64,000 nt of DNA from Candidatus Aminicenantes bacterium (GCA_022866045.1 JALHTW010000126.1:5104-69103), one strand, 5' to 3'; shown: positions 2,183-57,411, counted from the stretch's first letter. Numbers and translations: made by a program. Notes: a model not told the origin generated them from the sequence alone.

Positions 2183-3076
2183 TTAGGGCTTGATCTTTTT
2201 TAAGGTTTCTGAGGCGCGCCGGATGTATTCGGGGGTCGTCCCGCAGCATCCACCGATGACATTCGCCCCGCTTTCGATCATCTTCGGTATATCTCGGACA
2301 AACTCTTCGATCCCTTGGGAATAGACGACTTCCAGGGCACCCGTCAGCTCCGGCTTTCCGGCATTGGGCTGGGCGATGAGCGGCCGAGACGTATGTTTTC
2401 TCATTTCGCCTATGCAGTCAGCCAAGTCCGAGCTCGTCAGCGTGCAGTTGGCGCCGAACACGGGAATATCCAGTTTTTCGAAGGCCTCAACGCACTGCGC
2501 CACGCTGTTGCCCATGAGAGTGAAAAAGCCGCGGGGGGTTCGATTAAAGGTCATGGTCACAAAAATAGGGATGGACGCGGAGCTTCGGGCGCCTCGCACG
2601 GCGCAGAGAGCTTCCCGCAGGTCGAACATCGTTTCGATGAGCAGGAAATCCACTTGTCCCATGGCCAGGGCTTTGGCCTGAACGGCGAAAGCTTGTTCGA
2701 ACTGTTCCTCGGAATATTCGCCCTGGGGCTTCAGAAATTTCCCCGTTGGTCCTAAGCCTCCGCCGGCGAACTTCCCTTGGGGTTTGATCTCGGCCACTAA
2801 CTTGGCGGCCGCGGCGTTGAGCTCAGGGCATCGGTCTTCGAGACCGTAGGCGATGAGCTTGATCCTGTTCCCGCCAAAGGAATTGGTCACGACGGCGTCC
2901 GACCCGGCATCATAATAACTCCGGTGGATATCTTTGACCACCTCCGGATGGCTCACATTCCAGAGCTCGGGACACGTTCCTTGGGGCAGGCCGCGGTTCA
3001 TGAGCTCGGTACCCAGAGCACCGTCAAAAAGCACTGTTCGTTTAGCCAAAAGGTCTAAGATCATAAAAGCCGACAT
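2183..3076 (-). CDS. Homocysteine S-methyltransferase domain protein (MmuM/BHMT/MetH-N family, PF02574)
   Basis: 297 aa. Carries the Hcy-binding barrel and the C-terminal zinc motif GGCCGTTPEYI. ATG at 3076. Confidence 0.7.
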   Translation of the reverse strand: MSAFMILDLLAKRTVLFDGALGTELMNRGLPQGTCPELWNVSHPEVVKDIHRSYYDAGSDAVVTNSFGGNRIKLIAYGLEDRCPELNAAAAKLVAEIKPQGKFAGGGLGPTGKFLKPQGEYSEEQFEQAFAVQAKALAMGQVDFLLIETMFDLREALCAVRGARSSASIPIFVTMTFNRTPRGFFTLMGNSVAQCVEAFEKLDIPVFGANCTLTSSDLADCIGEMRKHTSRPLIAQPNAGKPELTGALEVVYSQGIEEFVRDIPKMIESGANVIGGCCGTTPEYIRRASETLKKIKP

Positions 3077-3088
3077 TGGAATTCCCCT

Positions 3089-4370: not shown

Positions 4371-4399
4371 CGGGGACACGGACCAAGGACGTGTCCCCG
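4371..4399 (-). terminator. Rho-independent terminator after the serC/serA-like operon
   Basis: Perfect 10-bp stem cggggacacg/cgtgtccccg with a 9-nt loop. On the minus strand it is followed by AATTTTT (plus strand aaaaatt at 4365-4371), immediately 3' of the dehydrogenase stop at 4406. Confidence 0.6.
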
Positions 4400-4405
4400 A
4401 ATTTA

Positions 4406-11978: not shown

Positions 11979-11994
11979 GAAGGGAACTCCTTTA

Positions 11995-14730: not shown

Positions 14731-14847
14731 GGGAGCACTATCGTGCGAACGATATTCATGAATACCCAAATGGCACTCCGAAGTAACAAAGGCGCGTTCG
14801 TCATGAGCTCTCAAACGAGAATCCAGGGAAAACCTGAAGAGGCTAGC

Positions 14848-16245: not shown

Positions 16246-16364
16246 ATAAATTTCTTATCCGCCCTCTAAGAGGAAAAACCGGTTTGATGCGTGGATGTCC
16301 TTCCTTCCGAGCTTTCAACAGGGAATCTTTCATTTTCATAATTCATCTTGGGGAAAGGAGGCGC

Positions 16365-17660: not shown

Positions 17661-17666
17661 GGAGAA

Positions 17667-20293: not shown

Positions 20294-20378
20294 TGAGGAA
20301 TGAAAGGGAGACAGGATTTTCAGCGGACCTCTCGGGCAGGGAGAAGGCCTTTTCAATTTTTAGGATAGGAGGAAAAAG

Positions 20379-22199: not shown

Positions 22200-22241
22200 A
22201 GATCGCAGAAGTTTGTCCTCATCGCCCGATTGCTAAATTTT

Positions 22242-22279
22242 CACGATTGGATTAAGGTTACACGATTGGATTAAGGTTA
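22242..22279. repeat. Perfect tandem direct repeat, 2 x 19 bp (cacgattggattaaggtta)
   Basis: The two copies occupy 22242-22260 and 22261-22279, 34 bp upstream of the asparaginase ATG. A related gattgctaa lies just 5'. Candidate operator or transcription-factor site. Confidence 0.8.
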
Positions 22280-22312
22280 AAGGGAAATTTGAGCGACTTC
22301 TGAGGAGGACCA

Positions 22313-25442: not shown

Positions 25443-25542
25443 AAAGGCCTCGCTTATCTTAAGCCCATTCTAGCTGAAAGGCGTTTTGACTTCAATCCGG
25501 GGCTATGGTATCTATTAGCCTGCCCATGAAGAAGGAAACGGG

Positions 25543-26277
25543 ATGAGACGAGCGTTGGAACACCTCTCGCGGATGATCTATCCGGGGCGACTGATCGCCA
25601 TCGGCCGCGATGCATCCGGAGATTTCAACGTCGTTATTTATGCCCTCACCGGACGCTCGGCCTCGAGCCAGGCCCGGAAACTGGTCCTTGAACAGGGCGC
25701 GGTTTGGACGAAGCCGACCGATCCGGAAGCGCTCGCAAAGGGAAATCCTGACCTTCTCCTCTATCCGGCGCTCGTCCTTGGCCGAGGGATCGCCGTCAGC
25801 AACGGAAAACAGACCTCCGACATCGACGCCGGCTCGCCCGGAAGCCCCGTCCATGCTCTCGACCATGCTTTGAAGAACTGGACCTACGAGCCGGACGCTC
25901 CCATCTACACGCCCCGGATCAGCGGCTGCGTCCTGCCATCGAACCGGGCAGCCCTCAGCGTGATCAAGAGGGCGGACAATGGAGAAGCGCTGCGGTTCTT
26001 CTTCGAATTGCCTCTCATTGCCGGCAAGGGCAAAATGATCTCGACGTATTCCGGCGAGAATAAGGACCAGCTGCCGTCTTTTCATGGAGAACCGATCGAC
26101 CTTGAACTCGAAGAGAGCTCGGCCGCGGCTATGGCCGAAGCTGTGTATGCGGCGCTCGGTCCGCAGGAAGCGGAGAAGGACCTTCGGGTGGCCGTAGCTT
26201 GCCTGTTCGCAAAGGCCTCGGACATGACAGATCATCAATTCTATCTCATCAACCGCACAGAAAGGATGAGGACATGA
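25543..26277 (+). CDS. purO: Archaeal-type IMP cyclohydrolase PurO
   Basis: MIYPGRLIAIGRDASGDFNVVIYALTGRSASSQAR matches the PurO N-terminal signature (MYxGRxxAxGR...G.F..YRVSSRSFPNR). RBS aaggaa. ATGA-coupled to the next gene. Confidence 0.55.
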   Translation: MRRALEHLSRMIYPGRLIAIGRDASGDFNVVIYALTGRSASSQARKLVLEQGAVWTKPTDPEALAKGNPDLLLYPALVLGRGIAVSNGKQTSDIDAGSPGSPVHALDHALKNWTYEPDAPIYTPRISGCVLPSNRAALSVIKRADNGEALRFFFELPLIAGKGKMISTYSGENKDQLPSFHGEPIDLELEESSAAAMAEAVYAALGPQEAEKDLRVAVACLFAKASDMTDHQFYLINRTERMRT

Positions 26278-43029: not shown

Positions 43030-43601
43030 TATTTTTCGGAAATTTTCCTTCGAGATAATATATCCTAAGCACAAGCGAGATTCAAACTAGAACGGCTGAG
43101 GGGCATCCGGATCCGCGAAGGCCTTCAAGGAGCTTTCGATAACGTGGGGATAGCGTTAGCTCCTTGGCTGCGCTTTTTCTGCCTGCGGCGTCGAGGAAAA
43201 TAGCTGTCCGACCGAAAGGAGAGCTGAGATCAGGATCCCGGGACGTTTTCTCAAAAATGGACCTGTGAGTAATTCTTTTTCCGGTGTCAGACCAATTTCG
43301 GGCGGGGTCCTGTCGCGGCTCTTCCCCGGCCGTGCTCGCGGCCAGGCCGCTGCGCGCGGGCGGGGAGCCCCTTCGCCGCGCCACCCCTGCTCGACGAGTG
43401 GCGCTCCGGAAAAAGAATTACTTCGAATGCACCTTGAATGCTATTTTTTTTCAAATAACTATTTTATAATTCAAAGCCTCTCGTTTGTAAGGAGAGAGCA
43501 AATCAATGATGGGTCCTGTCGCCGGCGACCCTCGTCGTCCTCGCCACCGATCACTATTTGATTTCTCAAAAAACGAAAGACTTTCAGGGATGGGAGGTCG
43601 A

Positions 43602-46600
43602 ATGATGAAAAAGAAAAAGCTCGTTGTCTTTGAATGGCTGTTGATTCTCCTTTTATGGGCATTGTTGCCGGCCAAGGGCTGGTCGCAGAGCGCAGAGCAA
43701 GCCGGAAAATTCTTCGAGAAGTTCTTGTGGCGGGCCATAGGCCCGGCATTGATGGGCGGCCGGACCGTGGATATCGAAGCCGTGGAAAAACAGCCGTGGA
43801 TCATCTATGCCGCCATCGGCCCGAGCGGCGTCTGGAAGTCGGAAAACGCGGGCACGACCTGGGACCCGGTTTTTTTCAAAGAGAATACGGTTTCCGTCGG
43901 CGACATCGCCATCGCCCAGTCCAGTCCGAACATCATCTGGGCCGGCACTGGAGAGGCCACCTGCCGGAACAGCGTCACCATCGGTGACGGCGTCTATAAA
44001 TCCACGGACAGCGGAAAGACCTGGACGAACATGGGGCTCAAAGACACGCGCCACATCAGCCGAATCCTCGTCAACCGCGGCGATCCGAACATCGTCTATG
44101 TCGCGGCCATGGGACATCTCTGGGGCCCGAACCAGGACCGCGGCGTCTATAAAACGATCGACGGCGGCAAGACCTGGAACAAGGTCCTCTATATCAATGA
44201 GAACACGGGGATTTCGGATCTGGCCATAGACTATGGCGACAGCCAGGTCCTCTATGCCGGCGCTTATGAACATCGCCGGCTGCCGTGGATCTACACGAGC
44301 GGAGGGCAGGGAAGCGGGCTCTATAAATCCACGGACGGCGGAGTGACCTGGAAAAAGCTGACCAAGGACCTCCCTGAAGGTGTCGTCGGACGGATCGGGC
44401 TCGACACGTCCCGGAGCAATCCGGGCATTGTCTATGCCCTGATCGAGCACAGAGAAGGGAGTGTCTTCCGGTCCGAGGACCGGGGAGAAAGCTGGAAAAG
44501 GATGTGCTCGACGGACCGGTTCAAGCAGGTGGCCAACCGCCCGTTCTATTACAGCCAGGTCCGCGTCGATCCGAACAATGACAAGACGATTTACATCCTG
44601 GCGATGGGGCTGACCGTTTCGCGCGACGGAGGACAAAATTTCTTTGGCATCGGAAGCGGCATCCATCCCGACCACCACGCGCTCTGGATCGATCCCGGAA
44701 ATTCCCTCCACCTCCTCGAGGGCAACGACGGAGGCATCGACATTTCTTGGGATGGCGGAAAGACCTGGATCGACATCCAGGCGATCGACGCCGCAGAAGT
44801 CTACCAGGTCGGCTATGACATGAGGGATCCTTATTACGTCTATTGCGGTCTGCAGGACAACAACACTTGGGGCGGACCGAGCAGCAGCCTCGACACAGCC
44901 GGCGTTTTGAACGCGGACTGGTTCGTGATCAACGGCGGCGATGGTTTTTTTGCCGTGCCCGATCCGACGGACCCGAACACCGTTTATTCCAACTACCAAA
45001 TGAACGGCATGTCGCGCTTCGACGGCCGGATCAACGGCGGCAAATCCGTGCGGCCGCAGGCCTCCCTGAGCGAGCCGCCGTACAGGTTCAACTGGAACTC
45101 TCCGATCCATATCTCGCCGCATGACTCGAACGTCGTCTATTGCGGCGCCCAATTCCTTTTAAGATCGGCCGACCGCGGACAGTCCTGGCAGGTGGCGAGT
45201 CCTGACCTCACGACGAACGACCCGTCCAAACAGAAGGATTCAGGAGGTTCGATCACGCCCGATAACTCGGGCGCGGAAAGCCACTCGACGATCACGACGA
45301 TCGCGGAATCCCCGGTCAGAAAGGGCGTGATCTGGTGCGGGTCAGACGATGGCTACGTCCAAGTCACTCAGGACGAAGGCAAGACATGGACGAATGTTGT
45401 CAAAAATATCAAGGGGCTGCCGCCCAATATCTGGTGCTCCCGGATCGAGGCGTCGCATTTCGATGCCGGGACCGCCTATGCCTCTTTTGACGGCCACCAG
45501 ACGGATGATTACGCCCCCTATATATTTAAGACCACGGACTTAGGCAAAACCTGGAAACCGATCAAGGCTAATCTTCCCTTCGGCTGGGTCCGCGTCGTGC
45601 GCGAGGACCTGAAGAATAAAAATTTATTGTTTGCCGGAACGGAGTTCGGCATTTTCGCCTCGCTCGACGGCGGGACAAGCTGGTTTTCGCTGAAAAACAA
45701 CCTTCCGACCGTGACCGTCTATGACATCGCCATCCATCCCCGGACAAACGACCTCATTATCGGGACGCACGGCCGGGGCATCTGGATCATGGATGACATT
45801 TCATTCCTCCAGGAAATGAGGCCCGAAGTGCTGGCCAAGGACAGCCACCTCTTCGGAGTTTCTCCGGCCACGGCGTTCTATATGTCCTCGATCCGGGATC
45901 CGTTCGGCAAACCCGGCTTCGCCGGGAAAAACAGGCCGTTCGGACTGACGATCACGATCTATACGAAAGCCGAACCCAAGGAACAACCCAAGGCGATGGC
46001 CACCAACGCCCAAGGACGAATGGTTTTCGAGACCAAATTCCCTAAAAAAGCAGGTCTGCAGCGGTTCACCTGGAACTTGATGTTTGGGCCCGAAAAGGAC
46101 GGAAAAAAAATCACGCCGTCGGCGGCAATAGGACTCCTTTCCCCCTTAACCCTGCCGGGCGAGTACACGATCACTCTCGATGTCGATGGCACGAAATCCC
46201 AAGCAAAGACGGCCATCGCCCCCGATCCTCGGCTGGCCATGAACGAGGACGATCGGGCCCTCCTGTACGAAACGGTGGCGCAAACAATGATCGTCACCCA
46301 AAGAATGGCCCTGGCCGTGACGGCCGCGCGGAATCTTCGTGACCAGATCCCCAAACTCGATGAGGGACTGAAGAAAGCGGCCCCGGCTTCCGACGCTCTG
46401 GCCCAGGCCGCAAAAGCCTTTACCGAAAAGGCCGGGGCCTTGGCTGATGAGATCATCCCCAAGGAATTGCTCTCTTTAAATTCGCGCGAACTATCGCTCC
46501 GCGGCGGTTCGATCAACCAGATCCTGATGTCTTTAGGGAACTCACTGGCGAGCTTTCCCGGCCCTCCGACCGCCACCGAGATCCGGCAGGTCGGAGAAAT

Positions 46601-46727
46601 CGAAGAGATCGTGGCTTCATGGGTTCGTCGGTTGAACGAATTGATCGCGACCGACCTGCCGAAGCTCAACGAGGTGCTGAAAGCGCATAACGTCCCGCTG
46701 TTGACGGTTCCCCAGGAGATCAAATAG
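43602..46727 (+). CDS. Large secreted BNR/Asp-box repeat protein (sortilin/VPS10- or GH74-like beta-propellers)
   Basis: RBS gggagg and signal peptide. At least nine S/TxDxGxTW BNR motifs (STDSGKTW, TIDGGKTW, STDGGVTW, SEDRGESW, ...). 1042 aa. Confidence 0.65.
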   Translation: MMKKKKLVVFEWLLILLLWALLPAKGWSQSAEQAGKFFEKFLWRAIGPALMGGRTVDIEAVEKQPWIIYAAIGPSGVWKSENAGTTWDPVFFKENTVSVGDIAIAQSSPNIIWAGTGEATCRNSVTIGDGVYKSTDSGKTWTNMGLKDTRHISRILVNRGDPNIVYVAAMGHLWGPNQDRGVYKTIDGGKTWNKVLYINENTGISDLAIDYGDSQVLYAGAYEHRRLPWIYTSGGQGSGLYKSTDGGVTWKKLTKDLPEGVVGRIGLDTSRSNPGIVYALIEHREGSVFRSEDRGESWKRMCSTDRFKQVANRPFYYSQVRVDPNNDKTIYILAMGLTVSRDGGQNFFGIGSGIHPDHHALWIDPGNSLHLLEGNDGGIDISWDGGKTWIDIQAIDAAEVYQVGYDMRDPYYVYCGLQDNNTWGGPSSSLDTAGVLNADWFVINGGDGFFAVPDPTDPNTVYSNYQMNGMSRFDGRINGGKSVRPQASLSEPPYRFNWNSPIHISPHDSNVVYCGAQFLLRSADRGQSWQVASPDLTTNDPSKQKDSGGSITPDNSGAESHSTITTIAESPVRKGVIWCGSDDGYVQVTQDEGKTWTNVVKNIKGLPPNIWCSRIEASHFDAGTAYASFDGHQTDDYAPYIFKTTDLGKTWKPIKANLPFGWVRVVREDLKNKNLLFAGTEFGIFASLDGGTSWFSLKNNLPTVTVYDIAIHPRTNDLIIGTHGRGIWIMDDISFLQEMRPEVLAKDSHLFGVSPATAFYMSSIRDPFGKPGFAGKNRPFGLTITIYTKAEPKEQPKAMATNAQGRMVFETKFPKKAGLQRFTWNLMFGPEKDGKKITPSAAIGLLSPLTLPGEYTITLDVDGTKSQAKTAIAPDPRLAMNEDDRALLYETVAQTMIVTQRMALAVTAARNLRDQIPKLDEGLKKAAPASDALAQAAKAFTEKAGALADEIIPKELLSLNSRELSLRGGSINQILMSLGNSLASFPGPPTATEIRQVGEIEEIVASWVRRLNELIATDLPKLNEVLKAHNVPLLTVPQEIK

Positions 46728-47340
46728 AAGGAGGAAGCCGGCGGGTGGTGAAGCTCCGATCCGCGTAGAAATTGATCCGGAAGGAATTCGATTTCCGCGG
46801 GATCATCATGCAGGAGTCGTTGAGCCTGACGCCTATGGACGCTGCATCGACCTTCTGGAAAAGAAACTTCTGCTCCTCGAGCGGCCAGCCCCGGTAGCCG
46901 GGCGAAAACCTTTTGCTCGGCCAAAGTCCTCGGCGCAACGCTTCTTCCACAATGCGGCGCTCGGCCTGCTTGAAGACCTGGACGATCGCGTCCGTCCCGA
47001 AGGCATCCAGGATGAGCCCTTTGAGCATGTCGCCCTCTTTGAACGCCGTTTCGATCTCGGCCTCAAGCGCCGGTCCGATGGTCACGACGCCGAGGGCGAC
47101 CATGACCGCTTTGTCGAAGATGCGGTTCCCGTTTGTTTCTTCGTGACGGATAATCGTATAAGCCGCCTTAGGCGCCAACAGAGCTGGAAGGCGGCTTTCG
47201 GTGTCCTTCAATAGAGCGAGCAGGGAAGGGGCCGCCGATCTCAATCCGTTCCTGCTGCCGAGGCGAACAAGGACTTTTCCTTCGTCCCAGCGAAAGTCAA
47301 AGTCAGCGAGGATGATCTGCTCGGCCATTTTGGGTAACAT
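46720..47340 (-). CDS. Stand-alone homologue of the methionine synthase B12 reactivation (AdoMet-binding) domain, PF02965-like
   Basis: C-terminal SKRFSPGYRGWPLEEQKFLFQKVDAASIGVRLNDSCMMIPRKSNSFRINFYAD aligns with my recollection of the MetH activation domain (R.APGYPACP...IG..LTESFAMWP.ASVSG.YF..PD). ATG at 47340; an alternative TTG at 47367 overlaps the MttB stop. Confidence 0.5.
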   Translation of the reverse strand: MLPKMAEQIILADFDFRWDEGKVLVRLGSRNGLRSAAPSLLALLKDTESRLPALLAPKAAYTIIRHEETNGNRIFDKAVMVALGVVTIGPALEAEIETAFKEGDMLKGLILDAFGTDAIVQVFKQAERRIVEEALRRGLWPSKRFSPGYRGWPLEEQKFLFQKVDAASIGVRLNDSCMMIPRKSNSFRINFYADRSFTTRRLPPSI

Positions 47341-47363
47341 CGTGACCGGCTCTTGGCTGCCTG

Positions 47364-48830
47364 TCAAAGGATATCCGGAAGCCTATCGAATCCATTGTTC
47401 TTCGCGTCCCTCCGCATGATCCTTTCGAGTTCTTTCCGGAGGGCTTCGTCGGCGAGATTCGGCGGTGTCTCGTCCAGGATCTGCTCGACCCGGTCATGGG
47501 CCCGGTCATCCATGGACTTCCGGCCTTGCGATACCCAGGCATCATACGTGTCCCTGTCCGCGAGCCGGGGGAACGTATGCTCGAGCCGATACCATTTCCG
47601 CGTATGGGGCATGGTCATGAACTGGGTCTCGGGTTTGAAACCCTCGAAAAGGCGCAAAGCCAGGGGGTCTTCTCTCTGGGCGATCCCTTCAATCAGTCTG
47701 TAGGCCATTCCGCAGATCTCATTGTCGACCAGAAGCTTTTCCAGGCTCTGCGTGCTTTCGAAATTCAGCATGCCCGCGCCCGAGATGACATTGATGCCGG
47801 CCAGCGCGGCGAGCGTCGCGCCCATGCCCGACTCCAGCCCGGCTTGCGCGTCGTCGATCTTCGCGTCGCTCAAACCCATATAGGCATGCGTCGGAAGCTT
47901 GAGGTATTTGCCGATCTGGGCATAAGCCATATCGATCATCATCGTCTCGATCGCGCCCATCGGCGTCGTGCCTTTCCGCATGTCGAAGCTCGCCGGGGAA
48001 CCTCCGAAGATCACCGGGGCGCCGTGTTGAGCGAGCTGGCAGATGACGAGCCCGGCCAGGTTCTCGGCCACATGCTGGACGAGGGTCCCGGCGATCGTTA
48101 CGGGCGAGGTCGCGCCGGTCAATCCCATGGAAATGAGCTCCGAGGGAATTCCGGCCCGGGCGCAGTCGATGAGGCTCTGCGTGGTCAGATTGCTCCATTT
48201 CAGGGGAGGTGAGGGGCAGGCGTCGAAAATGGCCAGAGGCTTGCGCCGGAGCTCTTCGTCCCCGCCGCGAACGGCAGCCAGCATTTCGAACATCGGCCGG
48301 AATCCTTCGGTCCGGAACGTTCCGGTCACGACCGGTTTGGACGAGAATTGAAGGCCGAGATAAAGCCGGTAGCTGTCGGCGATGATCTCGGGAACATCGC
48401 TGCTGACCAGGGCCGTACTCTGAAAATGGATGTGCTCGCAGCTTTCGGTCAGGCGGGCCAGCCGGACAAGGTCGGCCGTCTCGGGCTTCCGCTCCTGCTG
48501 CGTGGAGTGATCGAGGATCTTCACGGCCGCCGATCCCGGGTCAAAATGGACGTTGTCATGCCCGACGACGAATTCCTTCCTGCCGGTGCGGTCATAGAGC
48601 TTGACCGTTAAAGGGGTTGAGGCGAGAGAATCTTCGATGAGCTTCCGGTTGATAAGAACTCTGAGGTTCGTCTCGTCTACCGGCATGCCCGCTTCTTTGA
48701 AGAGCGAGCGGGCTTCCGCGTTCTCAACAAAAACCCCGTGCCGCCCCAAAAGGAGAAAAGCCTCGTCAACGATCTTTTCGATGAACGACCGGCTGAGAAG
48801 TTCGACTTTAGGTCGTGTGGTCCGGATCAT
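47364..48830 (-). CDS. MttB-superfamily methyltransferase, non-pyrrolysine (trimethylamine methyltransferase family; quaternary-amine type such as MtgB/MtpB/MtcB)
   Basis: 488 aa from the ATG at 48830 (MIRTTRPKVELLSRSFIEKIVDEA...). MttB TIM-barrel family. No in-frame TAG, so not a Pyl enzyme. The 654-aa ORF-track version is an Arg-rich 5' artefact over the corrinoid gene. ATGA overlap with the corrinoid protein. Confidence 0.8.
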   Translation of the reverse strand: MIRTTRPKVELLSRSFIEKIVDEAFLLLGRHGVFVENAEARSLFKEAGMPVDETNLRVLINRKLIEDSLASTPLTVKLYDRTGRKEFVVGHDNVHFDPGSAAVKILDHSTQQERKPETADLVRLARLTESCEHIHFQSTALVSSDVPEIIADSYRLYLGLQFSSKPVVTGTFRTEGFRPMFEMLAAVRGGDEELRRKPLAIFDACPSPPLKWSNLTTQSLIDCARAGIPSELISMGLTGATSPVTIAGTLVQHVAENLAGLVICQLAQHGAPVIFGGSPASFDMRKGTTPMGAIETMMIDMAYAQIGKYLKLPTHAYMGLSDAKIDDAQAGLESGMGATLAALAGINVISGAGMLNFESTQSLEKLLVDNEICGMAYRLIEGIAQREDPLALRLFEGFKPETQFMTMPHTRKWYRLEHTFPRLADRDTYDAWVSQGRKSMDDRAHDRVEQILDETPPNLADEALRKELERIMRRDAKNNGFDRLPDIL

Positions 48831-49492
48831 GCGAGCCCCCTCTTCGGCCCGATTTCCTTGGCCAGTCTGACGGCTTCGAGGGCGTTCTCTCCGTATCCGT
48901 CCGCGCCGATGTCCGAGGCCCATCTCTTGTTCACGGGCGCCCCGCCGACCAGAACTTTGAACTGCTGGCGAAGACCGCGCTCCTTGAGCATCTCGATCAG
49001 CCGGCGCTGGTTGAGCATCGTCGTGGTGAGCAGGGCGGAGAGGCAGATGAGATCTGCATCCATCTCCAGGGCCTTGTCGATGAACCTTTCCAGCTTGACA
49101 TCGGCCCCCAGATCCATGACATCGAAACCGTTGGCCGAGAGCATCGAGGCGACGAGGTTCTTGCCGATATCGTGGATATCGCCTTCGATCGTTCCGATGA
49201 CGACCTTTCCGCGGGAAAAATGTTCTGCCTGGGATGCTTTCAGGGCGGGCTTGAGGACGGCCATCACGGCCTTCATGCATTCGGCGCTGCTGATGAGCTC
49301 GGGCAGGAAATATTCGCCCTTCTCCCACAGAATCCCGGCCTTTTGAATGCCGGGGATGTAGCCTTTCTCGATGACCTCATGCGGGTCAAATTTTTCGGAG
49401 AGGGCTCTTTTGGCCAGAGTTTCAGCCGCCTCCTTATTTCCCGTGACGACGGCCTCTGCCATCGAATTGAAAAGACGATCTTTAGACTCCAT
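48827..49492 (-). CDS. Cognate corrinoid (B12-binding) protein, MtbC/MttC/MtgC-like
   Basis: 221 aa. Cap domain plus Rossmann B12 domain with the His-on motif DIHDIGKN. RBS aaggag. Confidence 0.85.
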   Translation of the reverse strand: MESKDRLFNSMAEAVVTGNKEAAETLAKRALSEKFDPHEVIEKGYIPGIQKAGILWEKGEYFLPELISSAECMKAVMAVLKPALKASQAEHFSRGKVVIGTIEGDIHDIGKNLVASMLSANGFDVMDLGADVKLERFIDKALEMDADLICLSALLTTTMLNQRRLIEMLKERGLRQQFKVLVGGAPVNKRWASDIGADGYGENALEAVRLAKEIGPKRGLA

Positions 49493-49532
49493 GGTTACTC
49501 CTTTGAAAATTATCCAAAATGCGCTTTCCAGG

Positions 49533-51302
49533 CTATGAGTTCCAAGCTTTAAACTCCAAGGCTTCGATGAACATCGTTTGGAATTCGGCGTCTTTCGCCA
49601 GGCTCAAATGGCGGACCCTGTTCGCAAGCCTCTCACAGCGAATGCGCTCGGGGCGGGACAAGAGCAAAGCCTTGGCGCCAGCGAGCGAGGAATTGCCCAC
49701 GAAAAAGATCTTTTTTCGGTCAATGCAGGGGAGCAGCCCCAGTTTCATGCTGTGGGGGATGTTGAGATAGTTGCCGAATGCGCCGGCGACGTATATGCCG
49801 TCCAGGTCTTTGACTGCCATTTTATTCTTCGCCAGCAATATCCGAATGCCCGTCTTTACGGCCGCAACGGCGAGCTGGACTTCACGAATATCTTGCTGGT
49901 TCAGGGAGAGATCGTTCGTCACCTCAATCTTCTTGGCTGGGCCCAGGATATGACCCTGGGCAGAAATAAAGCCCTTATCCAACGCGACGGCGATAATGTC
50001 GATCAGGCCCGTGCCGCACACGCCGCGGGCCGGCTCGCCGGCGATCGTTTCCACGACCAGCCTGTCTTTGAATCCGGCCTTATAAACGGCCCCGGGCAGG
50101 GCGAGCATCCCGCAACTGATCGTCATCCCTTCGAAGGCCGGGCCGGCCGCCGTCGAAGTCGCCGTGAAACGGGCCCTTCTTTTGAGGACGATCTCCCCAT
50201 TTGTGCCCAGATCGACGAATAGAAAATTCCCCTTTTGATGCTCCAGGTCGACCGCCGACAGGCCTGCGGAGATGTCGCCGCCGACGAAACTCTTGATGTT
50301 CGGGGCAATATAGACTCGACCCAAGGGAGAGATCGCAAGTCCCGACTCGACCGCCGGCAGCGCGGGAAGGACAGAAAAAACGGCCTGATAGGGCGACACG
50401 GCCAGGGTCGTGACAGGCAGGCCGAGGAGCAGATGATTCATGGCCGTATTCCCGGCCACGACAGCTTCATACACGGAATCCGACGAAACTTGATTCCTGC
50501 GGAGCAGGCCCCCGACCATCTCGTTAAGACCACCAACAATGGCCGTCCGGAGGTCCTCGAGCTTACGGGGATCGGCATACGCCGCCGTGATCCTGGAGAC
50601 CACATCCGCTCCGTATTTTACTTGGGCGTTCAGTCCGGCGGTCGAATCGAGAGACTTCCCTGTGTTGAGATCGAGGAGCTCGACGATCACCGTCGTCGTT
50701 CCGAGATCGACGGCGATCCCGAAGTCCCGGCCTGTCGTGTCTCCCGGCTCGATCGCGAGCAACTCCTTGTCGGCATAAAGGACGGCGGTCCATTCGGCGG
50801 CAGCAGGGGCGAGTTGATGATTTTGAGCAAAGCGCCGGAGAGTTTCCAAGGACAGGTGAAGCTCGACGTTTGGAAACCGGCGCTGGATAAAATCCAAAAG
50901 GGAATCCGGAGAAGCCAAATCGGGCTTTTGAGCCGACAGGCTGATCTTCTTAACAGCTGGGTCAAGGGTTAGAGAACGGCCGACTCCATGGCTGAGCACG
51001 GGCATGTGGAGAAGCAAGGATTCGAGGGGAATACGGATGGCCATGTCCCCCTCGACCCTGGCCCGGCAGGCGAGCCGGAAGTTCGCCGGAAGTTTCCTCC
51101 GGGCTAATAAAGAACGCTCTTCATCGCTGGCCGAAGGAAGGGCGCCGCGGACGATCTCCACAATACATTTGCCGCACAACCCGCGCCGGCCGCAGTAAAG
51201 GCTGAGGCGAAGGCCGGCGTCTTCGAGGACGTCAGACAAAATCTTGCCGGATGCGACTTTCAAAACCCGGCCTTCAGGCAGGATCTTCAGAGCGTGGCTC
51301 AT
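49533..51302 (-). CDS. ramA: Corrinoid reductive activase RamA (2Fe-2S ferredoxin domain + ASKHA ATPase)
   Basis: N-terminal CGRRGLCGKCIV ferredoxin-like cysteine motif followed by a large ASKHA-fold domain. 589 aa. ATGA overlap with the upstream permease. Confidence 0.75.
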   Translation of the reverse strand: MSHALKILPEGRVLKVASGKILSDVLEDAGLRLSLYCGRRGLCGKCIVEIVRGALPSASDEERSLLARRKLPANFRLACRARVEGDMAIRIPLESLLLHMPVLSHGVGRSLTLDPAVKKISLSAQKPDLASPDSLLDFIQRRFPNVELHLSLETLRRFAQNHQLAPAAAEWTAVLYADKELLAIEPGDTTGRDFGIAVDLGTTTVIVELLDLNTGKSLDSTAGLNAQVKYGADVVSRITAAYADPRKLEDLRTAIVGGLNEMVGGLLRRNQVSSDSVYEAVVAGNTAMNHLLLGLPVTTLAVSPYQAVFSVLPALPAVESGLAISPLGRVYIAPNIKSFVGGDISAGLSAVDLEHQKGNFLFVDLGTNGEIVLKRRARFTATSTAAGPAFEGMTISCGMLALPGAVYKAGFKDRLVVETIAGEPARGVCGTGLIDIIAVALDKGFISAQGHILGPAKKIEVTNDLSLNQQDIREVQLAVAAVKTGIRILLAKNKMAVKDLDGIYVAGAFGNYLNIPHSMKLGLLPCIDRKKIFFVGNSSLAGAKALLLSRPERIRCERLANRVRHLSLAKDAEFQTMFIEALEFKAWNS

Positions 51303-52687
51303 ATCCGGCCTCTATTCGCGGCGACACGATTTTTTCCCGCCGTCCAAAAGAAATAGGCGGGCAGTCCGGCCAGAATGAGGCCTGCCCCGGCCAGGGCTTG
51401 AACCGGCCGGGAAAATATCACGGCGATAAAAATGACAAGATTGAAAACGACGTAAAGGATCGGCAGGACGGGATATCCCCAGGCCCGGAACGGCCGTTCG
51501 CGGTCAGGCACTTTCCGCCGGAGGACGAGCACGGAGAAGCCCGTGGCGGCGAAAAAGAGGACCAGGGCGAACGCCACATATTCGATCAGGCTCTGATAGG
51601 TTCCGGAGAGACAGAGGAGGCTGGACCAGATCATCTGAGCCAGGATGGCCTTTGTCGGGACCCGAAAACGGGGATGGACGAAGGAGAGGTTTTTGAAGAA
51701 AAGCCCGTCCCTGGCCATGGCGAAGGAAACGCGCGGAGAATAAAGGATGTTCGCGCTCAGGCAGCCCAGCACGGCGACGGCGACGACGGCCGAAAAAAGC
51801 CGGGCGATCCCGGGCCCGAAGAGGCGGACCGCGGCCAATTCACCGATTCGAAGAACTCCGTCCATCTCGTTCACCGGAAGAGCCATACTATAAACGATAT
51901 TCGCCAGCAAATAAAGCGCGGCCACGGCCGCTGTGCCCAGGACGAGCGAGCGGGGGATCGTCTTGCGCGGATTCCGGATTTCCTCAGCCGTGCAGCTCAC
52001 GGAATACCAGCCGTCATAAGTCCAGATGACGGCCAGGAGAGCGGCCCCAAAATATGTCCATGAAGGGATGCGGCCTACCGGAAAAAACGGGACCAGATTT
52101 TGAAAGCCCGGTTTCTTGCCGATCATGAGACCGAGAGCTGCGAACGCTAGGAGGGCTGCGATCCGGAGGCCTGTCATCAAGTTCTGGAAACGAGCTCCGC
52201 CCTGGATGCCGAAATAATTGAGCCCGGAAAGGATCATGATCGACAGAATGGCCGTGACATGCCCTGCGCTCAGGCTAAGATGGATCGGGCCCAGGTTAAA
52301 CGCGCACAGCATATGCCCGGAAGAGAGAGCTGGAACCAAAGACCCAAAATATTCCGCGAAACCTATAGCCAAGGCGGCAATCCCGCCGCCCCCGATGATC
52401 CAAAAAAAAGTCCAGCCATAGAGAAAAGAAACGGATGACCCATAGGCTTCTTTGAGATATACATAGGGCCCACCCGAGCCTGGATAGAGCGTTCCAAGCT
52501 CGGCGTATGTCAATGCGCCGAGGGTCGTTATAATCCCGCCCATGATCCAAACCAGCCAGATCAGGCTAGGGGAGGGGAGGCCTGAGGCAATGATCCCAGT
52601 GGTAAGGAAGATCCCGGAACCGAACACGGACCCTATGACTAGAAACAGGGAATCTGCGAGGCCCAATTTTCGGGCAAGCTCAGTCAA
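51299..52687 (-). CDS. APC-superfamily amino acid / organocation permease
   Basis: 12-TM APC transporter with the TM1 GSGIF motif. TTG start at 52687 preceded by AAGGAA. First gene of the five-gene operon. Confidence 0.75.
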   Translation of the reverse strand: MTELARKLGLADSLFLVIGSVFGSGIFLTTGIIASGLPSPSLIWLVWIMGGIITTLGALTYAELGTLYPGSGGPYVYLKEAYGSSVSFLYGWTFFWIIGGGGIAALAIGFAEYFGSLVPALSSGHMLCAFNLGPIHLSLSAGHVTAILSIMILSGLNYFGIQGGARFQNLMTGLRIAALLAFAALGLMIGKKPGFQNLVPFFPVGRIPSWTYFGAALLAVIWTYDGWYSVSCTAEEIRNPRKTIPRSLVLGTAAVAALYLLANIVYSMALPVNEMDGVLRIGELAAVRLFGPGIARLFSAVVAVAVLGCLSANILYSPRVSFAMARDGLFFKNLSFVHPRFRVPTKAILAQMIWSSLLCLSGTYQSLIEYVAFALVLFFAATGFSVLVLRRKVPDRERPFRAWGYPVLPILYVVFNLVIFIAVIFSRPVQALAGAGLILAGLPAYFFWTAGKNRVAANRGRI

Positions 52688-53165
52688 TTTATTTCCTTTT
52701 AAATAATCTTATCTTGTTGATTTTAATGCGATTATAAGCTTTTTATTTATAATTCAGCCTCATTATATGAAAAGCCTGCTAAAACATCAATGAAATGAGT
52801 TTTCCTATTCTTTGCCACTTTTCTTATATTCCTTAATTATCCCAGATTTATTTTGTTTAACCCAAGTTATTGACAGTTTCTTTTTCATCGAATATCAGGT
52901 TTTTGACTTCTTAAAACCAATGAAATAACATTTTATATATTACTTATCCCATATATTATATCGGTATTATGTAATATAATGACAATGATAATTTTTTTAA
53001 CGTCCTTAAGAAGCCTTAAAAAAGATAATGGATCATCAAGAAGTTCTTCGTCTTTTTATTTATTTTTCATCTATTTTTTTGGCTTCGTTTTTATTGGCCG
53101 TGTATAAAAATCTTTTTTTTAGATTATTTTTCTTGTAACCCGTGGTATTTAAATAAATTCTATTT

Positions 53166-53183
53166 ATGTCGGCCGGCCGACAT
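53166..53183. repeat. Perfect 18-bp palindrome atgtcggccggccgacat
   Basis: Self-complementary 18-mer embedded in AT-rich DNA, ~95 bp upstream of parA. Candidate operator or centromere-like site. Confidence 0.8.
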
Positions 53184-53277
53184 TTCTCTTTTAAAACGCT
53201 TGAAATTTCAGCGTATTTTAAGTATCTTATTCTTGCCTTTCAGTTTTATGACCGCTATTTGAACCAAGGAGAAGGGC

Positions 53278-54042
53278 TTGATTATCGCTGTCACGAATCA
53301 AAAAGGCGGAGTAGGGAAGACCACCACGGCCGTGAATGTCTCCGCTGCGCTCGCGTTGAGCGGATGCCGGGTATTGCTTGTTGACGCCGATTCCCAAGCT
53401 CATAGCACAAAGTCGTGCGTTAAGGACCCAAACAGCAACGAGAAATCTCTCTATGATGTTCTGATGCACCCGGAACAAAAGATCCAAGCTGCGATCATGA
53501 AGTCCACGATTCCGGGTTTGGATGTCGTTATTTCGCGAGTATCCATGGCTAAGCTTGAATCGTCGCTCCTCGGCCAGATCGATGGGCATTTTAGGTTAAA
53601 AGACGTCTTGGAACCTGTCCGCGAACGGTATGAATTCATCTTGATCGATACGCCGCCAACCTTGGCCTTGATTACCCTGAACGCCCTCGTCGCTGCCTCT
53701 CATCTTTTGATTCCTATTCAAGCTTCGTACTTGTCTCTCGAGGGCACAGACGATCTGCTTGAAACAATCGAGAAGGTAAGGCGTGTCGCAAATCCAAAGC
53801 TGCAGATCCTAGGCATCCTGATCACACTCCATGACAGCCGGACAAATATTGCCCGGGACGTCGTCGAACGCATCCAGCGTGTTTTCGGCGAAAAGGTTTT
53901 TCATACGTATATATCTAAAAGCGTCAAGATCGAAGAATGCCCGGCCTACAAGGAATCGATTTTTACGTATGCGGGCAACTCGGTTGGCGCGCTGCAATAT
54001 AAAAAAGTCGCCGAGGAGATATTGAAACGTGCAAAAAACTAA
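53278..54042 (+). CDS. parA: ParA/Soj-family partition ATPase
   Basis: IIAVTNQKGGVGKTTTAVNVSAALA deviant Walker A. TTG start with RBS aaggag. Lower GC than flanking core genes. Confidence 0.85.
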   Translation: MIIAVTNQKGGVGKTTTAVNVSAALALSGCRVLLVDADSQAHSTKSCVKDPNSNEKSLYDVLMHPEQKIQAAIMKSTIPGLDVVISRVSMAKLESSLLGQIDGHFRLKDVLEPVRERYEFILIDTPPTLALITLNALVAASHLLIPIQASYLSLEGTDDLLETIEKVRRVANPKLQILGILITLHDSRTNIARDVVERIQRVFGEKVFHTYISKSVKIEECPAYKESIFTYAGNSVGALQYKKVAEEILKRAKN

Positions 54043-54877
54043 GCGCTCAGGACTTCCAGACAATATAGGTATGCGACATGATACGCATTTCGTCGAATTC
54101 ATTTCGAGAACAGTCGCGGCGCCTCTAGTCCGATTGATCTCCCTTGACCGTATCGATCCGAATCCCCATCAGGCCCGAAGTGAATTGGGGAATATCGAAG
54201 AGCTGATGTCCTCGATCAAATCTAAGGGTGTTTTAGAGCCTATCCTTGTCCGTCCCCGCAGAGACCGATATGAGATCATTGCTGGCGAGCGCCGGTTCGT
54301 GGCCTCGAAGAACGTCGGTCTTAAAGAAATTCCGTGCATTGAAATGAACGTCACGGATAATGAGGCCATGGAGATCTCGCTCATTGAGAATCTCCAGCGC
54401 AAAGACCTTGATGTTTTTGAGGAGGCAGACGGACTCGGAACTCTGATCGATATCTATGGCTACAGCCACGCCCAAATCTCGGAAAAAATTGGAAAGGCCC
54501 GCTCTACGATCACGGAGATCATCAATATCAGCAAGATCCCGGCGCCGATCCGTAAACTGTGCCAGGCGAGTTCTATCGATAAAAACCGCAGCCTTCTCAT
54601 CGAGATCTCTAAACTAAAAAATGTGGAGGAAATGAAGACAGTTATAGATAATATTAGAGAGCGGGGTCTCAAAAGAGAGGATACGCGCGACCTGACAAAG
54701 CTTCTTAAGGGCAAAGAGACAGATAAGAAAAAACCGAAATATTATGTCTTCAATTATAGTCCCAAGGAAGACCGTTCCTGCCGGATCCATATCGAATTCA
54801 AAAAAGAATCCGTCAGCCGCCAGGAAATTATTCGCATTCTTGAAGATCTTCTTGCTAAGTTGAAGACAAATCAATAA
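54029..54877 (+). CDS. parB: ParB/Spo0J-family partition protein
   Basis: ParB box EIIAGERRFVASKNVG plus an HTH region. GTG start overlapping the parA end. Low GC. Confidence 0.8.
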   Translation: MQKTKRSGLPDNIGMRHDTHFVEFISRTVAAPLVRLISLDRIDPNPHQARSELGNIEELMSSIKSKGVLEPILVRPRRDRYEIIAGERRFVASKNVGLKEIPCIEMNVTDNEAMEISLIENLQRKDLDVFEEADGLGTLIDIYGYSHAQISEKIGKARSTITEIINISKIPAPIRKLCQASSIDKNRSLLIEISKLKNVEEMKTVIDNIRERGLKREDTRDLTKLLKGKETDKKKPKYYVFNYSPKEDRSCRIHIEFKKESVSRQEIIRILEDLLAKLKTNQ

Positions 54878-55327
54878 TATTTTTACGCTTCAATTAGAAT
54901 CTCTTTCTTGAACTTAAAGAAATCCAAATGAACAAAAATTCATTGACCTATTTGCCTTTAGGAAGAATCAGGCCTCTTATGCATAGCTTAAATATGTAAA
55001 GAAGAACAGTGAGCTTTCGAAAGCGTCTTATGGCCTAATGGCCAAATCGCATTAGTTTACATAATAACTCTTATGCGACTCATAATTCATATACTTTTCA
55101 ACCTATTTATTTTCAACTAGATATGATAATTACGAAGTTTTTTGTCAATTTCAAGACAATATATTGCGCGTTTGTCCAAGCTAATCGGCTTATATTGATG
55201 TTGATAATATCAGGCTTGTCTTAATTTTGCCTTAGCTCTATCATAAATTAATGCCCCCTTTATAAATTCCGTTTCTTTTATTAAGCTAATTCTTGACCCA
55301 AATTTTCTAATGATTTTTGCGTTTAGG

Positions 55328-55855
55328 CTAATAAGAGCTCGGTTCGGGACCAGAGGCATGGAGTTGAACGATCACCCAACGTCCGTCTCGTCTCTCCAAA
55401 ACGCCGCTGATTCTCAGGCCTTCTATGACAAACGTTTTGCCCTTTTCAACTTCTTTCCAAGACAGTACTTCAGAGAACCAGGCGGCCTCTCCGGACCTGT
55501 GGACTTTGATCCTTTGGTCCTTAAGCCCAATCTCTATCCGGTCAACGGACGTAAAATATTTATCTATATATGCCTGGGTCATCTTCCAGCCCACGCGCCG
55601 GTCTAAAGGATTGCTGCCAAAGACGACGAGATCCTCATCGTGGGCATAGACTTCGGCCACTCCTTCCCTATTTCTTGTTTGAAAAGCTTTTATATATCGC
55701 TCAAGTACGGCCTTGACGGCCGCTTTTTCAGTGTCAATATCTATGGCCGGCTGGGCTTTCTGATGAAGATCCTCGTTCAAAGATGCGTTCATAGAAACGG
55801 TGCAAGCGGCCAACAGAACCGCCAAAATAGCTTTGGTCGCTAATTTTCTCATCAT
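55328..55855 (-). CDS. Secreted NTF2-like/SnoaL-like (DUF4440-type) protein
   Basis: Signal peptide MMRKLATKAILAVLLAACTVSMNA. NTF2-fold pattern (VLERYIKAF...WKMTQ...RDGRWVIVQLHAS). ATG at 55855; the ORF-track start at 55876 is TTG. Confidence 0.5.
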   Translation of the reverse strand: MMRKLATKAILAVLLAACTVSMNASLNEDLHQKAQPAIDIDTEKAAVKAVLERYIKAFQTRNREGVAEVYAHDEDLVVFGSNPLDRRVGWKMTQAYIDKYFTSVDRIEIGLKDQRIKVHRSGEAAWFSEVLSWKEVEKGKTFVIEGLRISGVLERRDGRWVIVQLHASGPEPSSY

Positions 55856-56455
55856 CCTCTCCCTCTTTAAACTCAATTTTATTTTAATGTTCTATTTCGG
55901 GATCGAAATGCTAGACCTAATGTTGGCCAAAGGATAACAATTGCGGAGCAAGGTGTCAAATTCCGATAGAAGCTATAAAAAAATAGCTGCGGGGAAGAAT
56001 AACCTGAATCCTGCATCAAATATAGTGGATGAACTTGATAAATGAAAAATATTGAGCGATTCATATGATATTTAGGGCTCATTCTTAACCTAACTAAAAG
56101 GTAAGTTAAGAAAAAAGTTCTTTGATCAGCTCAATATGAATATAACTTGCTGATATCATTATGGTTATGTGATATTTTAGCAATCATTTATTAAAAAATT
56201 CAGGCAGGATTCAGGTTTAATTCTCCCCGGCCTAATTTTCGGCAAAAATTAGGCAAAATTCCCTGCCTGATTTTTCATGTTATCCCCGATTATTTGTCCC
56301 CGAAAGGAGATTATCGGAGGAAAAAAAAGGGCCTGTCTTTCCCCTTTTCTAAAGGGGAATACCCGGGAATTCGGGATTGTTCCTAAAAATAGGGATTTGT
56401 CTTTAAAGAAAAGACGACACGTTATATCGCGTGTAAGATAGACAAAACAGGCGAG

Positions 56456-57286
56456 TTATGACAATCCTTGCCCCCCGGCTTTGGCCAGTCGTACGGTACT
56501 CCAGAAGGAATGTTTCGGCGGCAGTCGGTCTATGCCTCTGGCCCCAGCGGTGATGTCCGTGGATCGACCGAGGTCTGTTTCGTTGGAGATATTCGACTGT
56601 TCTCCCCGGGCTTTAGCGATCGCCTTTCTCTGCTCCTCGGTCGGCCCGCCCCATTCAAAGCCGATCGTCACCGCCGCTCCGGGCTGAGCGCCGATGCCCG
56701 CGGCATTGTCTTGGACGCGATTCAAGGGGACGGCGAATTCATAGACGAGCGATTTTTGCGGGGAGGCATATTTGAACATGGCCGGCAGGACGCCAGGAGG
56801 GACGGGAGATAATCCGGTTTTTTTGGTCACGACTTCGGATGCGTAATAACTATAAAAGGGCTTGGAGCGTATCTGGGCCTTCTGGTCCTCGGAGACGGCG
56901 CTATCCTTTTCCAGCAGGGCGATGAATTCTTCGGCCGTGATCCGTTTCCTCAGGAAATGAATACCATAATTTTTATTTCTGTTCCCTTCGGTGTCGACAT
57001 AAAGCGTGATCCCCACGTCTTCGATCGTGCTCCGGAGTTTCGAGTCTTTGATGATGAACAGGACATACAGCTTTTGGGCGTCATTGCGGAAGGCATATTG
57101 GATTCCTCCTTTTTCCCATTCGGCGAGCGCCGCCCCTTCCCATTCATTCGCCGCTCCGTCGAGCTTGGGGGGTTGGTTCGTCCAGACGCTTTCTGTCGTC
57201 TTGTCCTCCGCGGCCCGACCGGAGATTGCCGGCAGAATCGCCAGGGCCAAAACCATGCTCAGAATTAAAAAAGACATCTTTTTCAT
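56456..57286 (-). CDS. Secreted hypothetical protein
   Basis: Signal peptide MKKMSFLILSMVLALAILPAISGRAAED. No recognisable domain. ATG at 57286. Confidence 0.45.
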   Translation of the reverse strand: MKKMSFLILSMVLALAILPAISGRAAEDKTTESVWTNQPPKLDGAANEWEGAALAEWEKGGIQYAFRNDAQKLYVLFIIKDSKLRSTIEDVGITLYVDTEGNRNKNYGIHFLRKRITAEEFIALLEKDSAVSEDQKAQIRSKPFYSYYASEVVTKKTGLSPVPPGVLPAMFKYASPQKSLVYEFAVPLNRVQDNAAGIGAQPGAAVTIGFEWGGPTEEQRKAIAKARGEQSNISNETDLGRSTDITAGARGIDRLPPKHSFWSTVRLAKAGGQGLS

Positions 57287-57411
57287 TCTCATTAAACTTC
57301 TCCTCGCGCCTCTTAAAAACCTCATTGTTTAAGTATGAAGAATCCCATCCCAAAAATCAACTCCCCTCACGTCATGACGCGGTTTCTCAGATAAAATGAT
57401 TGCCACCCCCC

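Follow-up and report, generated by a model that had tools for sequence, protein, structure and literature searches.

Cobalamin (B12)-dependent methionine synthase (MetH), as described from E. coli, T. thermophilus and human, is built of a zinc-dependent homocysteine (Hcy) module with the motif GGCCG, a methyltetrahydrofolate (CH3-THF, pterin) module, a B12-binding module of cap and Rossmann domains with the motif DxHxxG, and a reactivation module that binds S-adenosylmethionine (AdoMet) through RxxxGY. We compared MetH and related corrinoid systems with a locus in a stretch of 64,000 nucleotides (nt) from a Candidatus Aminicenantes bacterium (GCA_022866045.1, JALHTW010000126.1:5104-69103), referred to as the window. 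The locus comprises a five-gene operon around a homologue of the methyltransferase MttB and an Hcy module encoded 44 kb away. The Hcy, B12 and reactivation modules recur here with the same motifs as separate polypeptides; the pterin module is missing, an MttB-family enzyme stands in its place, and the B12 protein is nearer to methylamine-type corrinoid proteins (TIGR02370 above cutoff). Judging from the genes, we think it likely on balance that the operon and the Hcy module form a folate-independent, B12-dependent split methionine synthase fed by the MttB homologue.

MttB-superfamily enzymes that lack pyrrolysine (Pyl) are known from the MtgB/MtgC/MtgA system of Desulfitobacterium hafniense and from MtpB, MtcB, MtyB and MthB of Eubacterium limosum. 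The window resembles these systems in its non-Pyl MttB homologue with Leu at the Pyl position, its cognate corrinoid protein and its ATP-dependent activase. It differs from them in that no MtgA/MtqA was found in it, and in that its MttB homologue, 31% identical to MtgB, has none of the four betaine-binding residues, R312 included.

Methyl transfer from an MttB-family enzyme and methionine synthesis meet in the split MetH/MtgBCDE system of Rhodobacterales (Ruegeria pomeroyi, Phaeobacter inhibens). Genetic work in R. pomeroyi shows that betaine demethylation through MtgB and methionine synthesis by the split MetH both depend on a single corrinoid protein (PMC12478193), an experimental precedent for the logic proposed here. 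That system shares with the window an MttB-family enzyme combined with a PF02574 module, a single corrinoid protein and RamA-like repair; it differs in its bidirectional pterin module MtgD, in having DUF1638 rather than a MetH reactivation domain, in its CmuA-like corrinoid protein and in its dispersed genes. The MesA-MesD core methionine synthases also methylate homocysteine from a methyl-corrinoid protein and not from methyl-folate (Price et al. 2021, PMC7857596). Mes catalytic domains are of the MetE type, whereas the acceptor module in the window is a MetH-type PF02574 protein and the methyl source an MttB-family enzyme. The last operon gene (gene 5) has its nearest described counterpart in TM0269 (PDB 1j6r), which is of the same size and fold (TM 0.73/0.76) and likewise stands alone, but partners a three-module MetH with a folate domain (TM0268), whereas gene 5 partners an MttB/corrinoid pair; the identity of the two proteins is about 16%.

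The closest precedent is bioinformatic. According to the main text of Williams et al. 2022 (Environ Microbiol, PMC9324843), the same four-gene set occurs in Ca. Electryoneota and 'diverse bacteria', its MttB homologue belongs to an uncharacterised clade apart from MtgB and MttB, and the set was hypothesised, from bioinformatics only, to make methionine by a corrinoid-dependent route from an unspecified methyl donor. Like that cluster, the window has a MetH-type reactivation protein, a corrinoid protein and the logic of a methionine synthase; unlike it, the window has its Hcy module 44 kb away and, in addition, a RACo-type activase and an APC permease. An earlier annotation of the window made by a model from the DNA alone (the sequence-only reading) had put the operon forward as an undescribed system. 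The gene set had, however, already been proposed in that article, three of its four parts lying within the operon and the fourth (Hcy) at a distance. What is new is the Aminicenantes layout, with its added activase and permease and its detached Hcy module, of a kind predicted in silico before. The main text of PMC9324843, Table S4 aside, does not discuss Aminicenantes, and a literature search found no experimental follow-up of the cluster and no mention of it for this group.

Genes of the Locus

The operon consists of five co-directional minus-strand genes at 46720-52687 of the contig stretch. All five had been named by the sequence-only reading, and each was recovered in place by open reading frame (ORF), Pfam and NCBIfam analysis. 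The MttB and gene-5 products are identical (100%) to public NCBI proteins from a metagenome assembly, encoded on a contig of 70,188 bp. They are listed here with the separate Hcy gene (lengths in amino acids, aa).

51299..52687, minus strand: APC-superfamily permease, 462 aa, TTG start (PF13520, E 2e-57; PF00324, E 7e-36)
49533..51302, minus strand: RACo-type ATP-dependent reductive activase, 589 aa (PF00111, PF17650, PF17651, PF14574)
48827..49492, minus strand: methylamine-type cognate corrinoid protein, 221 aa (PF02607, E 9e-23; PF02310, E 1.5e-29)
47364..48830, minus strand: non-pyrrolysine MttB-superfamily methyltransferase, 488 aa (PF06253, E 6e-91)
46720..47340, minus strand: gene 5, stand-alone MetH reactivation-domain protein of TM0269 type, 206 aa; alternative TTG start
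2183..3076, minus strand: stand-alone MetH-type Hcy-binding Zn-dependent S-methyltransferase, 297 aa (PF02574, E 2e-66)

The MttB homologue matches PF06253 with 305.4 bits (cutoff 25), residues 2-475 spanning profile positions 24-496, and is a predicted substrate:Co(I)-corrinoid methyltransferase. The description of it as a 488-aa non-Pyl enzyme with no in-frame TAG held: there is no internal stop, and a Leu aligns with the pyrrolysine ('X') of M. barkeri MttB (7xcl). With no Pyl codon, Leu at that site and a TIGR02369 score of 402 bits, below the cutoff of 525, it was ruled out as a true trimethylamine (TMA) methyltransferase. It shares 31% identity with D. hafniense MtgB (2qne/9yce; 221 bits) and 32% with M. 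barkeri MttB (214 bits). In MtgB, residues Y97, R312, H348 and F356 bind glycine betaine according to mutagenesis and a ligand-bound structure, and R312 is kept in all characterised members, all of which act on acidic quaternary amines (PMC13080624). The window protein has S, H, S and E in their place and so keeps none of the betaine-binding residues; the donor is probably not recognised in the way that known substrates are. Membership in a glycine betaine-using group by homology to MtgB was ruled out on the same residues (0/4) and the 31% identity. With 31-32% identity to MtgB and MttB and different pocket residues, the protein falls outside every substrate-defined clade, as the sequence-only reading had supposed. 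Across 65 unique MttBs of its own clade, drawn from several phyla, the S, the Leu at the Pyl position, the second S and the E never vary, and H or Q occupies the R312 position. Our guess is that the donor would be a cationic N-methyl compound, recognised without the Arg by which all characterised members hold the acidic group.

Two related Aminicenantes genomes carry a second MttB paralogue of divergent sequence close to the main cluster (L068:1327-2787 and L075:3636-5066), with 27% identity to the window MttB and 31-35% to MtgB and MttB.

The corrinoid protein passes TIGR02370 (229.2 bits, cutoff 215.3) and falls below the cutoffs of the MtgC models. It has a B12 cap and a Rossmann B12-binding domain, in which the His-on motif DxHxxG is present as DIHDIG, the very motif picked out by the sequence-only reading. 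It scores 109 bits against the B12 module of E. coli MetH, and 143 bits against the MetH model, the cutoff of which is 1011.

Gene 5 was assigned by several comparisons. Its PF02965 match is below the Pfam threshold (21.4 bits against a gathering score of 25; E 1.9e-4) and covers residues 138-195 only; many gene-5 homologues do carry a precomputed PF02965 match. The sequence-only reading had named a failure of the PF02965-like assignment as grounds for refutation, and no such failure occurred, the low Pfam score notwithstanding. Gene 5 matches the MetH activation domain TM0269 of T. maritima (PDB 1j6r) with E 1.7e-5 in phmmer and E 6.6e-11 as a profile of 24 sequences. An AlphaFold model (pLDDT 91.6) has 1j6r as its best Foldseek match (E 7e-12, TM 0.73/0.76), and the 18 matches that follow, from T. 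thermophilus, human and E. coli, are without exception MetH reactivation domains. The KRFSPGY of gene 5 aligns with E. coli R1134-PAPGY1139, so that the AdoMet motif RxxxGY is present; across the 24 homologues the P, G and F of this stretch are invariant and the K, R, S and Y at least 90% conserved. A second stretch, ESCMMIPRKSxS, aligns with ESFAMWPGASVS. Sequence profile, predicted fold and motif together strongly support gene 5 as a stand-alone MetH reactivation (AdoMet-binding activation) domain protein. The stand-alone family comprises 667 cluster representatives at E up to 1e-10.

The activase has an N-terminal [2Fe-2S] ferredoxin domain followed by the RACo linker, middle and C-terminal ASKHA domains. 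Its scores of 361 bits against the AcsV model (cutoff 800) and 155 bits against the RamA-like model TIGR04270 (cutoff 500) are both below cutoff, and by its domain sequence it has the RACo architecture rather than that of RamA sensu stricto. The sequence-only reading had called it a RamA reductive activase. It is 49-60% identical to MttB-linked orthologues (L003, L008) and 31% identical to the RACo of acs clusters (L094/L095). A role as the Wood-Ljungdahl AcsV was ruled out by this difference, and from sequence the protein is a RACo paralogue specific to the MttB/corrinoid system. The permease has no NCBIfam equivalog match at or above cutoff and is presumed to import the methyl donor.

Homocysteine Module and Search for a Pterin Methyltransferase

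The Hcy protein at 2183-3076 matches PF02574 with 225 bits. Among structures in the PDB its best match is the N-terminal module of T. maritima MetH (1q7m, 169 bits), with T. thermophilus at 165, BHMT at 62 and MmuM at 60. It keeps the three Zn-ligand cysteines within GANC and GGCCG, equivalent to E. coli C247, C310 and C311, and its top 120 homologues are all stand-alone proteins of about 295 aa. An assignment as an MmuM/BHMT-type direct methyltransferase was set aside, the protein being much closer to MetH N-terminal modules; direct activity may still occur. A stand-alone PF02574 protein of Phaeobacter is reported to make methionine directly from betaine or dimethylsulfoniopropionate, with no B12, in vitro (PMC12366255).

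Identity to the Hcy protein is 39-50% for modules that lie inside corrinoid–Hcy–gene5–MttB clusters in other phyla and 54-65% for Aminicenantes copies near such clusters. The cluster-embedded modules of other phyla share only 27-32% with E. coli MetH. From these relationships we infer that the protein may be the trans-encoded methyl-acceptor module of the MttB operon 44 kb apart. The sequence-only reading, which missed this probable acceptor in the same window, had suggested a non-standard methyl acceptor or reactivation route; the direction was right, and the acceptor module itself was overlooked.

The absence of an MtxA-type pterin methyltransferase, noted for the operon by the sequence-only reading, extends to the whole 64-kb window and to the related loci examined. 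PF00809 and PF01208 are absent from Pfam scans of about 45 window ORFs and from every Pfam-annotated related neighbourhood, and a phmmer search with the pterin domain of E. coli MetH found no match in the window ORFs or in the first 92 related loci; overall, 96 related loci were covered.

The Hcy gene ends a co-directional minus-strand block at 2183-6447 that also encodes a class-V aminotransferase (BhcA-like), a PGDH-like 2-hydroxyacid dehydrogenase and a NifS-like cysteine desulfurase. The block is kept in L096 and L097, and in L097 a gene for S-adenosylhomocysteine hydrolase lies about 8 kb off.

Conservation in Related Genomes

Relatives were collected by a gene-5 profile scan with one genome per GTDB species, which yielded 218 relatives, of which 80 loci were kept; the scan rested on two clade-specific peptide patterns. 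Six-frame ORFs of the 80 loci were searched with the window proteins and with four E. coli MetH modules. The gene neighbourhood, which the sequence-only reading had singled out for comparison, proved to be conserved over several phyla: MttB was found near gene 5 in 64/80 loci and the corrinoid protein in 61/80. The gene order corrinoid–gene5–MttB occurred in 19 loci and corrinoid–MttB–gene5 in 13, and the order of the window (APC–RACo–corrinoid–MttB–gene5) in five. RACo was present in 7/80 loci, and APC homologues in 10/80, at three different positions relative to the cluster; RACo and permease are a lineage-specific addition to the cluster.

In 14 loci, gene 5 is immediately preceded by the Hcy module. 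The complete corrinoid–Hcy–gene5–MttB cluster is found in ten of them, in one case together with an APC permease, and the remaining four are truncated (Hcy–gene5–MttB, Hcy–gene5, or corrinoid–Hcy–gene5). Such Hcy-containing clusters were found in Krumholzibacteriota, Zixibacteria, Gemmatimonadota, Ignavibacteria, Terriglobales/Acidobacteriota and unclassified metagenome-assembled genomes (MAGs), and include one on a complete 4.1-Mb chromosome (CP070727, L077). Where checked, their intergenic gaps are a few bases (e.g. L085). Their MttBs are 53-57% identical to the window MttB and have the same pocket signature, and the gene-5 proteins of the complete four-gene clusters are 33-40% identical to that of the window. 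In Aminicenantes, an Hcy gene lies about 0.1-9 kb from the cluster in L023, L046, L064, L068, L069, L094 and L095.

Two Aminicenantes loci, one of them in a 4.07-Mb genome (L094), connect the Hcy module with the carbon monoxide dehydrogenase/acetyl-CoA synthase (CODH/ACS) genes. The order in both (L094:809-10879, L095:434-8725) is CODH (Prismane)–ACS (CdhC)–CooC–AcsD–AcsC–AcsV(RACo), with an Hcy orthologue last, 64-65% identical to the window protein and in the usual place of AcsE. No pterin methyltransferase was found near the CODH/ACS cluster of either locus, and corrinoid–(gene5)–MttB genes follow 5-8 kb downstream. This layout suggests that methionine is made there directly from the methylated corrinoid iron-sulfur protein (CFeSP).

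Other genes recur around the clusters. A Pyr_redox_2 (FNR/TrxB-like) flavoprotein, a possible electron donor for reactivation, directly follows MttB at L077:12794-13858 and L085:12767-13678. Upstream of clusters, L081:7139-8065 and L086:7261-8145 encode a divergent AdoMet-dependent methyltransferase (Methyltransf_11, Trm112p-like at its N-terminus), and Aminicenantes type-B loci have a PEMT-family methyltransferase upstream (L001:7952-8482). Many MAGs labelled 'uncultured Eubacteriales bacterium' (L018, L020, L021, L029 and others) show Sortilin–MttB synteny and at least 70% protein identity with Aminicenantes; these labels are probably wrong.

Proposed Pathway and Alternatives

Put together, the locus has the parts of a MetH without the folate module and with an MttB-family enzyme added. 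The donor half, an MttB-family TIM-barrel enzyme and an MtxC-type corrinoid protein, would come from methylamine or quaternary-amine systems, and the half for acceptance and repair from MetH, as a stand-alone Zn-dependent Hcy module and a stand-alone AdoMet-binding reactivation domain. In the pathway that we propose, the APC permease would import a methylated amine, and the MttB homologue would move one methyl group onto Co(I) of the corrinoid protein. The methyl-Co(III) protein would then dock on the Hcy module (2183-3076), where the Zn-activated homocysteine thiolate would be methylated, yielding methionine and restoring Co(I). Corrinoid that is oxidised to Co(II) could be rescued by two routes: reductive methylation with AdoMet in the manner of MetH, carried out by the gene-5 protein, and ATP-driven reduction through the [2Fe-2S] domain of the RACo-type activase. 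The system would have no MtxA because its acceptor would be homocysteine. Domain identities, conserved catalytic motifs, the lack of a pterin module in the loci searched and the clustering of the four core parts across phyla are observed; the direction and chemistry of each transfer, the use of the distant Hcy module in this organism, the sharing of work between the two repair proteins and the substrate are inferred.

A more far-reaching form of this proposal is tentative, and we regard it as possible rather than probable. It holds that the donor is of a class new to the MttB superfamily and no acidic quaternary amine, given that His or Gln stands in place of the universally conserved Arg and Glu in place of an aromatic cage residue; that in Aminicenantes a single Hcy module would be a hub for both the MttB-cognate corrinoid protein and the CFeSP of an AcsE-less CODH/ACS; and that repair would follow two chemically different routes, through RACo with ATP and through the MetH-type protein with AdoMet.

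Several points weigh against a split methionine synthase. The mechanism is proposed from gene content and genome comparison. The Hcy gene lies outside the operon, in a housekeeping block conserved in the closest relatives, and its link to the operon therefore rests on orthology with clustered versions elsewhere. In two Aminicenantes genomes its orthologue is the closing gene of a CODH/ACS-CFeSP-AcsV cluster, where CFeSP may donate the methyl group instead or as well, and the Phaeobacter PF02574 protein is reported to be active without B12 in vitro (PMC12366255). A permease and a dedicated ATP-dependent activase are typical of catabolic methyltransferase systems, and a pterin methyltransferase, MetH or MetE may be encoded beyond the visible 64 kb. 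Since the gene-5 scan used two clade-specific patterns, the association statistics cover this clade only.

The sequence-only reading had framed the operon as one for uptake and demethylation, a catabolic role that we consider less likely than an anabolic one in methionine synthesis. On such an account, the operon would carry out conventional MtgBCA-type demethylation, a distant methylcobamide:THF (or other) methyltransferase would feed one-carbon (C1) metabolism, and gene 5 would be an extra repair factor. The combination of permease and RACo-type activase in one operon fits this account, as does the Ruegeria pterin methyltransferase MtgD, which is encoded apart from mtgB and mtgC (PMC12478193), and only 64 kb of the genome is in view. 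Yet no pterin-binding or URO-D-type methyltransferase was seen in the window or in the neighbourhoods of 96 related loci of several phyla, and the only second methyltransferase that recurs in the clusters is the Hcy module of MetH type. What steadily accompanies them is a MetH reactivation domain, a part that characterised catabolic systems do not have, and RACo (7/80) and permease (10/80) are present in a small part of the loci only. We consider a catabolic operon of this kind unlikely. Even less probable, in our estimate, is that the Aminicenantes Hcy module is part of the Wood-Ljungdahl machinery, taking its methyl group from CFeSP, with something else as the acceptor of the MttB/corrinoid pair. 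Core methionine synthases that use a corrinoid protein are an established idea, proposed for Dehalococcoides (PMC7857596), and the position of the Hcy orthologue directly after AcsV in L094 and L095, at the place of AcsE and with no pterin methyltransferase there, speaks for this explanation. The same two loci, however, have corrinoid–(gene5)–MttB genes only 5-8 kb downstream; beyond Aminicenantes, the Hcy gene sits between the MttB-type corrinoid gene and gene 5 with no CODH/ACS nearby, and Pfam scans found no CODH/ACS gene in the window. The two roles are also compatible, as one Hcy module could serve two methyl-corrinoid donors.

We give very little credence to a third explanation, in which gene 5 would act in trans to reactivate a truncated housekeeping MetH from another part of the genome, in the manner of TM0269 with TM0268, its adjacency to MttB being accidental. 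Of the solved structures, TM0269 is nearest to gene 5, and it is reportedly needed to reactivate T. maritima MetH (Huang et al. 2007, cited in PMC7857596). Orphan copies of gene 5 also occur in L010, L011 and L019. Linkage to MttB and the corrinoid gene in 64/80 species-level loci, in two orders and over several phyla, is nevertheless unlike chance synteny, and no MetH-like multidomain gene is adjacent to gene 5 in any locus.

Implications

If the split methionine synthase is real, MetH would be as modular in evolution as it is in structure, its folate-binding module being exchangeable for an MttB-family enzyme. The abundant methylated amines of the environment could then enter the methionine/AdoMet cycle without passing through methylene-THF reductase and folate C1 units. 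The clade is widespread among uncultured phyla of sediment and soil (Aminicenantes, Krumholzibacteriota, Zixibacteria, Gemmatimonadota, Ignavibacteria and Acidobacteriota). Metagenome surveys routinely score 'mttB' or 'mtgB' as catabolism of TMA or glycine betaine, and even as methyl donors for mercury methylation, and would misassign members of this clade. The system is compact, with four to six proteins, and directly testable in vitro.

Operon Layout and Other Genes of the Window

The sequence-only reading had described the operon genes as chained by overlaps throughout. ATGA overlaps exist at two of the four junctions, APC/RACo (51299-51302) and corrinoid/MttB (48827-48830). The RACo and corrinoid genes are separated by a 40-nt spacer carrying an AAAGGAG ribosome-binding site, and an MttB/gene 5 overlap (TTGA) exists only if gene 5 begins at TTG 47367 (215 aa). 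Public annotation and the family alignment favour ATG 47340 (206 aa), which is most likely the start.

A 590-nt, very AT-rich intergenic region (52688-53277) separates the permease gene from the divergent parA/parB genes. It contains a sigma-70-like promoter-like site about 75 nt upstream of the permease start:

52762..52790, minus strand: promoter-like site (TTGATG, 17 nt, TATAAT), 10/12 positions in a consensus scan; pattern match only

A search for riboswitches and other Rfam families (cobalamin, SAM and SAH riboswitches were sought) gave no gathering-score match across the whole window, and the sole Rfam match in the 750-nt leader region was a chance-level one to MicC. The GC content drops to 0.43-0.45 for about 4 kb (52000-56000), compared with 0.55-0.60 elsewhere in the window. 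The parAB–rho–lon neighbours of the operon were seen again in L008. On its other side, a gene for a 1073-aa Sortilin/Vps10-BNR repeat protein (43506-46727, plus strand) is convergent with gene 5 and overlaps it by 8 nt; a gene of this kind flanks the MttB cluster in 44/80 related loci, regardless of the gene order within the cluster.

Further from the operon, the minus-strand region 11151-13011 includes a phosphosulfolactate synthase gene, comA (TIGR03849, 337 bits, cutoff 280). ComA normally takes part in making coenzyme M or sulfolactate. Next to it is a 338-aa ORF that neither Pfam nor NCBIfam matches, and the pair is kept in L096 and L097. ORFs of 454, 466, 248 and 289 aa (13366-16143, plus strand; 25492-26238, minus strand; 56456-57325, minus strand) are unmatched in Pfam at E up to 1e-3. 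On the plus strand, 16284-23392 holds a tandem array of four amidohydrolase-family genes (458, 444, 431 and 606 aa) and, after them, an asparaginase_2 (isoaspartyl peptidase-like) gene with a TAT signal. In L003, an amidohydrolase gene directly follows MttB.

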